From Nitrosomonadales bacterium (GTDB lineage: Bacteria > Pseudomonadota > Gammaproteobacteria > Burkholderiales > Gallionellaceae), in NCBI GenBank assembly GCA_016197305.1, contig JACPVZ010000043.1, positions 1 to 55,827 of the forward strand: a stretch of DNA of 55,827 nucleotides, in the 5' to 3' direction. Position numbers and translations under genes: made by a program. Positions 2,250 to 18,702 of the stretch are shown here, piece after piece (within the stretch, counting starts at the first letter, position 1; every line of letters begins with the position of its first letter). The notes below the pieces were generated by a model, which saw nothing but the letters and a program-made list of their open reading frames with translations, was not told the DNA's origin and did not search any database.

Positions 2250-3183
2250 AGGCCGTCACTATCTTCTGCACCAGCGGGTGGCGCACCACGTCTTCCGCGA
2301 GGAATTCGCTGAACGCGATGCCGCGCACATCCTGCAACACCGTGCGCGCCTCGACCAAACCGCTCTTCTGCCCGCGCGCCAGATCGATCTGGGTCACGTC
2401 GCCGGTGATCACGGCCTTGCTGCCGAAGCCGATCCGGGTCAGGAACATCTTCATCTGTTCCGGCGTGGTGTTCTGCGCCTCGTCGAGTATCACGAAGGAA
2501 TGGTTCAGCGTGCGCCCCCGCATATAGGCCAGCGGCGCGATCTCTATCATGCCGCGCTCGAATGCACGGCTGACTTTCTCCAGCCCCATCAGGTCGTACA
2601 GCGCGTCATATAACGGCCGCAGATAGGGATCGACTTTCTGCGCCAGATCGCCGGGCAGGAAACCGAGCTTCTCTCCGGCCTCGACCGCGGGGCGCACCAG
2701 CACCAGCCGGCGCACGGCTTCACGCTGCAGCGCATCCACCGCACAAGCCACCGCCAGATAGGTCTTGCCGGTGCCTGCCGGACCGATGCCGAACGTGATG
2801 TCGTGTTCCTGTATCGCCTGCAGATAGCTGTTCTGGCGCGGCGTGCGGCCGCGTATCTCGGCCTTGCGCGTCATCAGCAACGGCACCGAGTCGCTGCCGG
2901 GCTGCGGCTCGGTGCGCCACTTCATCGCCTCGATCAGCCCCAGCTGCAGGCGCTCCAGGGAGATATCGTGTTTCGCTTCGACATAGAAATCCTGCAACAC
3001 TTGCCGGGCAAGTTGCGCCTGCTCGCCCTCCACGGTGAAATGCTCGCCGCGCCGCGCAATGCTGACCTCCAGCGCAGTCTCGATCTGGCGCAGGTTCTCG
3101 TCGAATGGCCCGCACAACCGCGCCAGCCGCTGGTTATCCAAGGGCTCAAGGGCAAATTGCAAGGTGTCCGCCTGAGCGCTCAA
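2218..3183 (-). CDS. phoH: PhoH-family ATPase (YbeZ)
   Basis: Walker [41 protein letters not shown]. Confidence 0.95.
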
Positions 3184-4514
3184 GCCGCACCCGCAATCAA
3201 TTCGCCGCGCAAGGTATGGCGAACCACCCGGGTGATCTTCACCTCGGCGAACCGCCCTATCAGCCCTGCCGAGCCGGGGAAATTCACTACGCGATTGTTG
3301 TCGGTGCGCCCGGCCAGCTCATGCGCATCCTTCTTGGACACGTCCTCGATCAACACCCGCTGCACGGTGCCCAGCATCGCCTGCGCGACAGCCTCTTCCT
3401 GGGCGTTGATGCGATCCTGCAACATCTTCAAACGCGCCGCCTTGACCTCGTGCGGCGTGTCGTCGCGCAACTCCGCAGCCGGCGTGCCCGGACGCGGGCT
3501 GTACAGATAGCTGAAACTGACATCGAAGCCGATCTCGTCGATCAATTTCATCGTCGCCGCGAAATCCTGCTCTGTCTCCCCGGGAAAACCGACGATGAAA
3601 TCCGAGGTGATGCAGATGTCGGGACGCGCGGCGCGCACCCTGCGTATGATCGATTTGTATTCCAGCACGGTGTGGCCGCGCTTCATCGCCGCCAATATCC
3701 GGTCCGACCCGGACTGCACCGGCAGATGCAGATGGCTGACCAGCTTGGGGGTGCTCGCGTACACATCGATCAAGCGCTGCGTCATCTCCTTGGGATGCGA
3801 GGTGGTAAAACGCAACCGTTCCACCCCGTCGAGCGCGGCGACCGCCTGCAACAGATAGGCGAAATCCACCGCATCGCCATCCTCGCTGTCGCCGCGATAG
3901 GCATTCACGTTCTGCCCGAGCAGCGTGATCTCCTTGACGCCTTGCGCCACCAGCTCGCGCACATCGCGCAGCACATCGTCCAAGGGGCGCGACACCTCTT
4001 CACCGCGCGTATAGGGCACCACGCAGAAAGTGCAGTACTTGCTGCAGCCCTCCATGATGGAGACAAAGGCCGAGCCGGAACTGGTTTGCGGATTGGGCAA
4101 ATGATCGAATTTTTCGATTTCGGGGAAACCGATATCGACCTGCGCACTGCCGCTGTCCTTGCGCGCCTGGATCAACTGCGGCAAACGGTGCAAGGTCTGC
4201 GGCCCGAACACCACATCCACATAGGGCGCACGCCTGACGATCGTTTCGCCTTCCTGGCTCGCGACGCATCCGCCCACGCCGATGATCAGGTCGGGATTGG
4301 CCAGCTTCAGCGGACGCACCCGCCCGAGATCCGAGAACACCTTTTCCTCGGCCTTCTCGCGTATCGAACAGGTATTGAACAGGATGACATCGGCCTCTTC
4401 CGGACTGTCTGTCTGCACCATGCCCTCACGAGCGCCCAACAGGTCAGCCATCTTGCCCGAGTCATACTCATTCATCTGGCAGCCGTAAGTTTTGATATAG
4501 AGTTTTTTCGACAC
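3180..4514 (-). CDS. miaB: tRNA-2-methylthio-N6-dimethylallyladenosine synthase
   Basis: [12 protein letters not shown]-terminus, NTCSIREKA, radical SAM CxxxCxxC (CSKYCTFC), C-terminal TRAM domain. Confidence 0.97.
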
Positions 4515-4709
4515 GTTGCAATGATACCTAATTTGAACAGCCTGCTAATCTACCTTGAATCGCACACCAGAAACCAGCACAACTTCAGCGCCGGGAAAAT
4601 TTCCTATCCCGTATTTTATTTACGTGTATTCCCGACAAAATCACTTATATAATAAGTCCCACTTTAGTCAACTATCGGCTGACCAAAGCAACCAAAGGGA
4701 GAAAACAGC

Positions 4710-4805
4710 ATGGCTATTATCGCAACCGTAGCAGCAGTATTTACCGCATCACTCGCAGTCGGTTTTTCCATCTGGATGGTGATCCAGCTTTTCAAAAGCA
4801 ACTAA
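4710..4805 (+). CDS. Small hydrophobic membrane peptide, copy 1 (31 aa, MAIIATVAAVFTASLAVGFSIWMVIQLFKSN)
   Basis: Hand-translated ATG4710..TAA4805; purine-rich RBS AAAGGGAGAAAA upstream; TATAAT at 4648-4653; 17/31 identical to the copy at 4999. Confidence 0.75.
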   Translation: MAIIATVAAVFTASLAVGFSIWMVIQLFKSN

Positions 4806-4998
4806 ACGCTCAACCTAGGCTGGTTCTTTAGCCCCCTGACGTTTTTTTACTTCCTGCCTTTTCTAGGCTTTGTCTGCGTTTAAAAGCGCCGGGCGTATTT
4901 ACCTAGGGAAATTGTTTGCTGTAAAAAAAAATTGTGCTAGGATTCGCCCCATCAGTTTCTAGTAGTTGTGTTCAATCTAGTTCTCTTGGGAGGGAAAA

Positions 4999-5094
4999 AT
5001 GGCAATTATCGCAACGATTTGTTCCGTGGGTACCGCATTGGCAGCGCTTCTGTTTTCCTTGTGGCTGGTAAAAGAACTGTTTACAAGCCGCTAA
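4999..5094 (+). CDS. Small hydrophobic membrane peptide, copy 2 (31 aa, MAIIATICSVGTALAALLFSLWLVKELFTSR)
   Basis: Hand-translated ATG4999..TAA5094; GGGAGGGAAAA RBS; TTGCTG-N16-TAGGAT promoter-like boxes at 4916-4943; same length as copy 1, ungapped alignment. Confidence 0.75.
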   Translation: MAIIATICSVGTALAALLFSLWLVKELFTSR

Positions 5095-5112: not shown

Positions 5113-5139
5113 AAAAAACCAGCCTAGGCTGGTTTTTTT
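5113..5139. terminator. Bidirectional intrinsic terminator between small ORF 2 and tRNA-Met
   Basis: AAAAAACCAGCCTAGGCTGGTTTTTTT: hairpin flanked by A-run and T-run. Confidence 0.8.
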
Positions 5140-5142
5140 ATT

Positions 5143-5219
5143 TGGTGGTGATAGGTGGATTTGAACCACCGACCTCAGCGTTATGAGTGCTGCGCTCTAA
5201 CCACCTGAGCTATATCACC
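5143..5219 (-). tRNA. tRNA-Met (CAT), elongator type
   Basis: Reverse complement GGTGATATAGCTCAGGTGGTTAGAGCGCAGCACTCATAACGCTGAGGTCGGTGGTTCAAATCCACCTATCACCACCA; 77 nt, CAT anticodon, paired 1:72, encoded CCA. Confidence 0.92.
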
Positions 5220-18625: not shown

Positions 18626-18702
18626 TGGTGGGTCGTCGCGGACTTGAACCGCGGACCAAAGGATTATGAGTCCTCTGCTCTAACCAACTGAGCTAACGAC
18701 CC
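18626..18702 (-). tRNA. ileX: tRNA-Ile2 (CAT, lysidine-modified)
   Basis: Reverse complement GGGTCGTTAGCTCAGTTGGTTAGAGCAGAGGACTCATAATCCTTTGGTCCGCGGTTCAAGTCCGCGACGACCCACCA; CAT anticodon; position downstream of rpoD is typical of Ile2. Confidence 0.85.

Follow-up and report, generated by a model that had tools for sequence, protein, structure and literature searches.

Paired 31-residue membrane peptides beside miaB in Gallionellaceae are inherited with one type of cbb3 oxidase

What is the function of a 31-codon gene that stands in two tandem copies between miaB and a tRNA gene? The question was raised by a reading of the bare sequence of a 55,827-nt stretch of DNA (here, the window) from a Nitrosomonadales bacterium of the family Gallionellaceae, which pointed to two paralogous hydrophobic peptides and suggested an unannotated small-protein family, possibly a new type I toxin-antitoxin pair. 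Gallionellaceae are major freshwater and groundwater iron oxidizers and rely on high-affinity cbb3 oxidases at low oxygen. As described below, retention, loss, and regain of the gene go hand in hand with those of a particular cbb3 oxidase type, and for this reason we favor a helper of the oxidase rather than a toxin.

The locus and its small-protein family

Both open reading frames (ORFs) are where they had been placed, with the lengths and translations given for them, in a gap between a divergent miaB and a convergent tRNA-Met gene. The gap is AT-rich, with 43% GC compared to 59% for the genome. Its features and neighbors are as follows.

3180..4514, minus strand: miaB, tRNA methylthiotransferase, divergent neighbor (Pfam UPF0004/Radical_SAM/TRAM)
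4623..4653, plus strand: predicted promoter of copy A, with an upstream motif at 4623-4636, a poor -35, and a -10 at 4648-4653 (conservation in tandem first copies)
4697..4701, plus strand: Shine-Dalgarno of copy A (sequence)
4710..4805, plus strand: copy A, 96 nt, 31-aa single-helix membrane protein (profile E 3e-16; hydropathy 2.16 over 19 aa)
4811..4829, plus strand: degenerate terminator core (17/19 nt of the core after copy B), within a duplicated unit (repeat family D2)
4915..4943, plus strand: predicted sigma-70 promoter of copy B, with a -35-like hexamer, an A-tract, and an extended -10 at 4933-4943 (conserved in relatives)
4988..4993, plus strand: Shine-Dalgarno of copy B (sequence)
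4999..5094, plus strand: copy B, 96 nt, 31-aa single-helix membrane protein (profile E 1e-17)
5113..5138, no strand assigned: hairpin resembling an intrinsic terminator, with A and T runs on its flanks (hairpin prediction, repeat analysis)
5143..5219, minus strand: tRNA-Met(CAT), convergent neighbor (ARAGORN, Rfam)

A second tRNA-Met(CAT) gene lies elsewhere in the window (18626-18702, minus strand).

Copies A and B align without gaps and are identical at 17/31 residues and 60/96 nucleotides. The differences fall 11/8/17 on the three codon positions, and at 7 of the 17 identical residues the synonymous codon is switched, so that the silent differences remarked on at the outset are indeed there. 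There is no third copy in the assembly, since among 29,734 ORFs of 24 to 42 aa in the whole genome, the runner-up scored 66, compared to about 227 for A and B.

Each copy had also been credited with a ribosome binding site (RBS) and promoter-like boxes of its own. The Shine-Dalgarno elements are listed above, and the boxes are conserved in the first, second, and single copies of relatives; a generic sigma-70 scan of the window called no plus-strand promoter for either ORF. Second and single copies have in common an extended -10 promoter, 43 to 72 nt before the ATG, which precedes 42/45 second copies and 49/49 single copies in relatives; it is this copy B type that single-copy genomes retain. 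First copies have a different type of promoter, with a conserved upstream motif, longer leaders, and a -10 box that, in a looser pattern, precedes 41 of 44. The distance from the -10 to the ATG is 46 to 61 nt in second copies (leaders of about 50 nt) and 56 to 95 nt in first copies. The motif at 4623-4636, in its strict form, occurs once in the genome and overlaps the -35 region; the copy A promoter likely needs an activator, for which this motif is a possible site. A run of T's follows 43/45 second copies, and the hairpin at 5113-5138 is a predicted terminator for both copy B and the convergent tRNA gene. A motif that ccoN and the peptide genes have in common around the RBS was considered and dropped, being present in only 34 to 48 of 141 sequences.

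The search for homologs in Nitrosomonadales that the initial reading had called for was productive. A 22-row profile found members with the reading frame preserved in 216/317 Gallionellaceae genomes and 11/18 genera, with no real match in an order-wide sample of 244 genomes from other families; two weak matches outside Gallionellaceae lay within long shadow frames and were discarded. Within the window's genus, homologs were found upstream of miaB in 15/24 loci (our own counted), and two of the nine miaB loci lacking one had little or no upstream DNA. Homolog records that name a taxon are mostly assigned to Gallionella, Sideroxydans, Ferrigenium, or Gallionellaceae. The 141 distinct coding sequences all encode 29 to 35 aa; 137 of them start with ATG, and 140 have a Shine-Dalgarno-like motif. 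Selection on the protein, which had been suspected from the codon differences and for which a dN/dS below 1 had been proposed as the check, is evident in the pN/pS ratio; 46 close pairs gave 0.135 and 225 pairs gave 0.188 (the two closest bins), values for sequences chosen by a protein profile and hence biased toward intact copies. For the window pair itself, the pN/pS of A and B was 0.31/0.67. The most conserved residues in the 141 sequences are F19 (140), W22 (133), A5 (130), and G11 (129); helical periodicity of the conservation was not significant (P 0.24). The predicted fold of a homolog is one helix, residues 3 to 29, with a pLDDT of 91.5.

The idea of an unannotated family held in one respect, as no Pfam, NCBIfam, or PADLOC family model significantly matched the window ORFs or family members, and failed in another, as members are already deposited as the hypothetical proteins Slit_0456/0457 and Galf_0592/0593. 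PHROGs gave nothing for the window ORFs and only weak matches to uncharacterized families for three homologs. A PDB sequence search yielded two weak matches (E 0.29 and 0.99) with the 22-row profile and none with a 67-row profile, a Foldseek structure search found no match, and the ESM Atlas returned only unnamed clusters at 0.84-0.85. Among 1.84 billion representatives there were 79 matches of 29 to 95 aa. We considered whether the longer ones were fused or extended forms and rejected this; they represent this peptide lengthened upstream, except for one that is lengthened downstream. In the literature searched, no paper used the tags Slit_0456/0457/0415 or Galf_0592/0593, and no description of the family was found (Slit_0415 is a second small ORF, discussed below). 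Peptides this small are easily missed in proteomes. Within the accessible parts of the supplements to PMC8788666 (one short file), PMC9731265, PMC11228373, and PMC12442390, there was nothing on these genes, and in the accessible supplements to PMC12016527, the proteome table of Sideroxydans lithotrophicus ES-1 lists CcoN (Slit_0411) and lacks Slit_0456/0457 and Slit_0415. Contigs from RNA runs covered a relative's locus, and three of them span the peptides, miaB, and the flanks; as such contigs carry no information on strand, level, or transcript ends, they say nothing about expression of the peptides. Taken together, these data support an undescribed family of single-helix membrane proteins, restricted to Gallionellaceae and under purifying selection.

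Presence, decay, and relocation follow one cbb3 oxidase

We compared the distribution of the peptide with that of CcoN in 184 genomes of the family that were at least 90% complete, our own excluded. CcoN was called close at 78% identity or more to the reference, split matches included; other matches were more distant. The peptide was found in 129/135 genomes with close CcoN, compared to 2/49 without, and in the window's genus in 75/77 compared to 0/12. Most exceptions have a ready explanation. In two of the close-CcoN genomes without peptide (G165 and G228), CcoN falls outside the peptide-associated clade; three others (G298, G312, and G328) gave no miaB match, which suggests that the peptide locus is probably unassembled; in G004, the contig ends at miaB. 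The two peptide-positive genomes without any CcoN match are fragmented assemblies of 110 and 260 contigs. Five incomplete genomes tested next all matched the pattern; among five further peptide-positive incomplete genomes (83 to 87% complete), three had no close CcoN, and the contigs of these three were short or ended near the locus. Since miaB was not found in 10/30 peptide-negative genomes, some absences of the peptide may reflect loss of the locus. Five near-complete genomes (G207, G215, G208, G041, and G046), two of them single contigs, lacked a match to miaB at E values up to 1e-100; miaB may truly have been lost in some Gallionellaceae lineages. Outside Gallionellaceae, the identity of CcoN does not exceed 66%, and no peptide was found.

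Related genomes are not independent, and Fisher P values computed from such counts therefore overstate the significance; for this reason, we built a tree of MiaB (64 rows) in addition to one of CcoN (29 rows), both quick single-gene trees. In the CcoN tree, all sequences from peptide-bearing genomes form one clade with a support of 95. In the MiaB tree, loss or replacement of the oxidase together with lack of the peptide occurs on at least five separate branches within peptide-positive groups. The gene has left traces at miaB in some genomes: in G089 and G090, promoter, RBS, first codons, and terminator are kept around a broken ORF, and in G165, whose oxidase comes from another clade, an eroded promoter and terminator remain. 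The opposite change is seen in G021, which is nested in a clade that lost both; it again carries close CcoN and the peptide, 2 kb apart, with nothing at miaB, and has regained the gene beside ccoN.

The decayed remnants upstream of miaB in which promoter and terminator are left (L124, L127, L132, and L004) belong to genomes in which the oxidase was lost or replaced or the gene had moved.

The position of the gene was examined in the same light. Synteny at miaB, another check proposed initially, was found at most loci: in the genome collection, 45 of 61 are at miaB or its SPOR neighbor, 13 are at cco genes, and 3 are elsewhere. A set of 40 further regions, mostly from single-copy genomes and partly overlapping with the 61, has 25 in the miaB context, 7 at cco genes (one of which counts only as being within 5 kb of ccoN), and 8 elsewhere. 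The miaB side is the commonest address and probably the ancestral one, and miaB is not the functional partner. Relocated copies at cco genes occur in three settings. In many genomes of three genera, the peptide gene stands head-to-head with a DsbD_2 gene, which itself mostly precedes ccoN, probably as the result of a single event that spread sideways; in G060 and G056, it comes immediately before ccoN in the same orientation; in G016, it is tail-to-tail with ccoG-ccoH-DsbD_2, and the miaB copy has decayed. About eight other non-miaB settings lie away from cco genes, and in two of these the neighbors flank cco genes elsewhere. Even beside ccoN, the relocated gene keeps its own promoters and terminator.

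Two observations concern these neighborhoods. CcoN of the peptide-bearing DsbD_2-ccoNOQP block (L168, L161, L215, and L216) is 91 to 96% identical across three genera, suggesting horizontal transfer of the whole oxidase module. Separately, two unnamed membrane-protein genes (L043:3382-4588, L051, L052, and L206) border on cco genes in one genome, and in genus g34 they immediately follow the peptide; they match no Pfam or NCBIfam family above cut-off and are possible further cbb3-linked genes.

How specific is the association? Controls were run in 80 genomes, 43 peptide-positive and 37 negative. Cytochrome c1, ACIII ActD, and a Cyc2-like motif were each present in 12/12 double-negative genomes of the genus; among the 43 peptide-positive genomes, 7 lacked cytochrome c1, 20 lacked ActD, and 2 lacked the Cyc2-like motif. 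The DsbD_2 gene was found in 43/43 peptide-positive genomes (one weakly) and in 0/12 double negatives of the genus; because it tracks the peptide too, we attribute the signal to the ccoNOQP system and its assembly genes taken together. It is this one cbb3 system that the peptide follows in its presence, decay, regain, and relocation.

The window's own assembly, which is 80% complete, gave no match to ccoN, ccoO, ccoP, ccoG, or ccoH. It does hold a full-length DsbD_2 gene, 70% identical, on a contig (C14) that runs past serS and breaks within an mltF-like gene. The gene order in G073 is serS, mltF-like gene, tRNA-Ser, ccoN; as the contig breaks just where this relative carries ccoN, our cco operon likely lies in an assembly gap, with recent loss of the operon as a possible alternative. 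The same genome encodes, at C160:3468-4790 on the minus strand (L242), a divergent heme-copper oxidase subunit I that is not CcoN and falls far below the CtaD and SoxB cut-offs.

Possible roles of the peptides

We think it probable that the peptides bind the ccoNOQP-type (proximal) cbb3 oxidase as a small accessory subunit, stabilizing it or helping to assemble it. A small partner like CydX was the other option in the sequence-only reading, and the co-occurrence and co-decay of the gene with the oxidase clade fit it. Basic residues of the family are confined to the C-end, and by the positive-inside rule the helix would insert N-out/C-in; it could then pack against the oxidase via the conserved A5, G11/T12, F19, W22, and Q/E26. 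We further suppose that copies A and B, whose conserved promoters are of different types, provide alternative forms of the peptide for different conditions. CcoN residues that set the clade apart, being fixed within it and changed in CcoN from elsewhere, are concentrated at 1-21 and 426-461 (the N terminus and near the C-terminal helix), which we take as only a lead to a binding site. Prediction of a CcoN-peptide complex (both from G060, with alignments) scored 0.00 in two runs with controls not folded, and we count it neither for nor against binding.

The partner could instead be the assembly machinery, with the peptide serving cbb3 biogenesis without joining the oxidase, as a partner of the membrane protein DsbD_2, of Sco, or of CcoG/H/I/S when copper or heme is delivered. 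In favor of this, DsbD_2 goes with the peptide just as closely within the genus, and it is the neighbor most often acquired by relocated copies, most of which are head-to-head with it (in G054 with ccoN 62 kb off); yet G310 and G311 keep a close DsbD_2 (70 to 72% identical) and have a CcoN of another clade and no peptide at miaB, which favors the oxidase itself, and the gene directly upstream of ccoN in G060 and G056 has DsbD_2 17 kb away in G060. We regard a role in biogenesis alone as somewhat unlikely. MgrB and AcrZ are small regulators of their partners, and a peptide tied to the oxidase might likewise tune its activity or turnover or relay electron flux to a sensor kinase. Such a role would suit a gene that keeps its own promoters and terminator beside ccoN and has two paralogs with different conserved promoter types, and the accessible part of PMC8788666 describes proximal and distal oxidases of ES-1 that are expressed differently on Fe(II) and thiosulfate. 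On the other hand, the gene accompanies the CcoN clade almost universally and has extended -10 promoters that look constitutive, both of which suit a structural role; an FNR-type box is not conserved upstream (0 to 1 mismatches in 5/138 upstream regions), and no sensor gene is among the recurring neighbors, leaving regulation quite improbable.

Ldr/Ibs/Fst-type toxins are small and hydrophobic, with a basic C-end and tandem intergenic copies, and the peptides resemble them in these features, which speaks for the initial suggestion of a type I toxin, here one restrained by antisense RNA. Computational searches for the antisense partner did not support the suggestion. Antisense -35/-10 sites are present in 18/45 tandem loci, compared to 17.0 in shuffles, and an antisense extended -10 in 7/45, compared to 14.9 in shuffles and 43 on the sense strand; antisense terminators are found in 0/45 spacers, and tRNA is the only Rfam match above gathering score. 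Nor is the RBS sequestered, the unpaired probability being 0.43 versus 0.39 in shuffled context (40 of the 141 sequences), and the leader is short, about 50 nt in the second-copy type. There was no plasmid or phage match and none in Pfam, NCBIfam, or PADLOC; the gene is inherited vertically at one fixed locus and decays upon oxidase loss. A toxin is thus very unlikely. We give equally little credence to membership in another respiratory complex (bc1, ACIII, or Cyc2) and to a role in helping miaB or tRNA-Met, for which a weak PetN match (E 1.7, far below cut-off) and the conserved position beside miaB might be cited: bc1, ACIII, and the Cyc2-like motif persist in all 12 double negatives of the genus, and miaB is kept where the peptide gene has been deleted, often directly against tRNA-Met.

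These results illustrate how a gene of only 31 codons, missed by family and fold searches, can be assigned a function from co-loss and from the remnants of its pseudogenes.

Comparison with known small proteins

For a small accessory subunit of a cbb3 oxidase, the closest parallel is CcoM of Pseudomonas stutzeri. In the accessible part of PMC4742706, CcoM is described as a 36-aa helix, encoded far from ccoNOP, that contacts CcoN helices VIII, IX, and XI and is needed for stability and not for activity. The peptide resembles it in being one helix of 30-odd residues, predicted N-out/C-in, with a basic C-end and its own promoter remote from ccoNOP. In a register set by eye, T12/F19/M23/F28 of the peptide match the spacing of T13/F20/F24/W29 of CcoM, a T-x6-F-x3-(M/F) pattern in which F19 is present in 140/141 sequences and the position of CcoM M17 is mostly Ala (position 16). 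Unlike CcoM, the peptide has no conserved ANR/FNR box and often comes as two paralogs. The CcoM model NF041600 matched neither of the two ORFs at E up to 10 nor the 22 members at E up to 1, and a six-frame search of our genome with it gave only weak matches elsewhere.

As a separate observation, the CcoN residue corresponding to P. stutzeri M287, a CcoM contact in helix VIII, is Ala in Gallionellaceae proximal CcoN (L047 and relatives).

A second single-helix ORF, of 34 to 45 aa, is present between ccoP and ccoG in Gallionellaceae cco operons and is deposited as hypothetical, e.g., Slit_0415. Examples are as follows.

L146:1889-2002, minus strand: operon CcoM-like ORF
L155:7440-7559, plus strand: operon CcoM-like ORF
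L161:7481-7597, plus strand: operon CcoM-like ORF
L149:3888-3989, plus strand: operon CcoM-like ORF

It was found in 44/80 genomes, among them 38/43 peptide-positives and 0/12 double negatives, and one member weakly matches NF041600 (E 0.011, below cut-off). This ORF is likely the CcoM counterpart, and since it may fill the CcoM groove, the peptide may bind elsewhere on the oxidase. Homology of the peptide to the operon ORF was considered and rejected: profile comparison gave a probability of 3.6%, none at that sensitivity. One can envision an oxidase with two extra subunits, the operon CcoM-like helix and the remote peptide at a new site, in which A and B would be exchangeable isoforms under separate promoters that retune it to oxygen or electron donor. 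Condition-specific isoforms of cytochrome oxidase subunits in mitochondria would be the counterpart; we consider this full scheme unlikely. Another 36-aa hydrophobic ORF with an RBS, matching no family, was seen near the distant-type ccoNO of G012 (L154:2236-2343, minus strand).

Our findings give two overlooked small-protein families a testable job in the cbb3 oxidase, with named copies in cultured strains (Slit_0456/0457, Galf_0592/0593, and, for the operon ORF, Slit_0415). An oxidase expressed or solved from its operon alone could miss a part encoded elsewhere.

Other small proteins invite comparison as well. The type I toxins (Ldr, Ibs, Fst, TisB, and ZorO) have size, hydrophobicity, and tandem intergenic copies in common with the peptide, which differs from them in its lack of an antisense partner signal, its short leader, and an inheritance tied to the oxidase. 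CcoY (Cj1485, 33 aa) and CcoX of Campylobacter jejuni support full cbb3 activity, as stated in the accessible part of PMC8267372; they too are very small single-helix proteins but are encoded in the cco operon, and no family model matched here. Among other cbb3 small helices, the accessible part of PMC7876108 names CcoH and the cytochrome cy anchor. CcoQ, CcoS, and CcoH are likewise single-helix proteins, serving as cbb3 subunits or assembly factors, but they are longer and encoded in the operon, and the same loci carry them as distinct genes; the CcoS model matches 1/22 members below cut-off (E 0.07). Finally, CydX (in bd oxidase) and subunit IIa (in ba3 oxidase), both named in the accessible part of PMC4742706, are small helices that stabilize or activate a terminal oxidase; they belong to different oxidase families, and the peptide matches no family model. 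The Gallionellaceae peptide, although not a member of the CcoM family, most likely works like CcoM or CydX.
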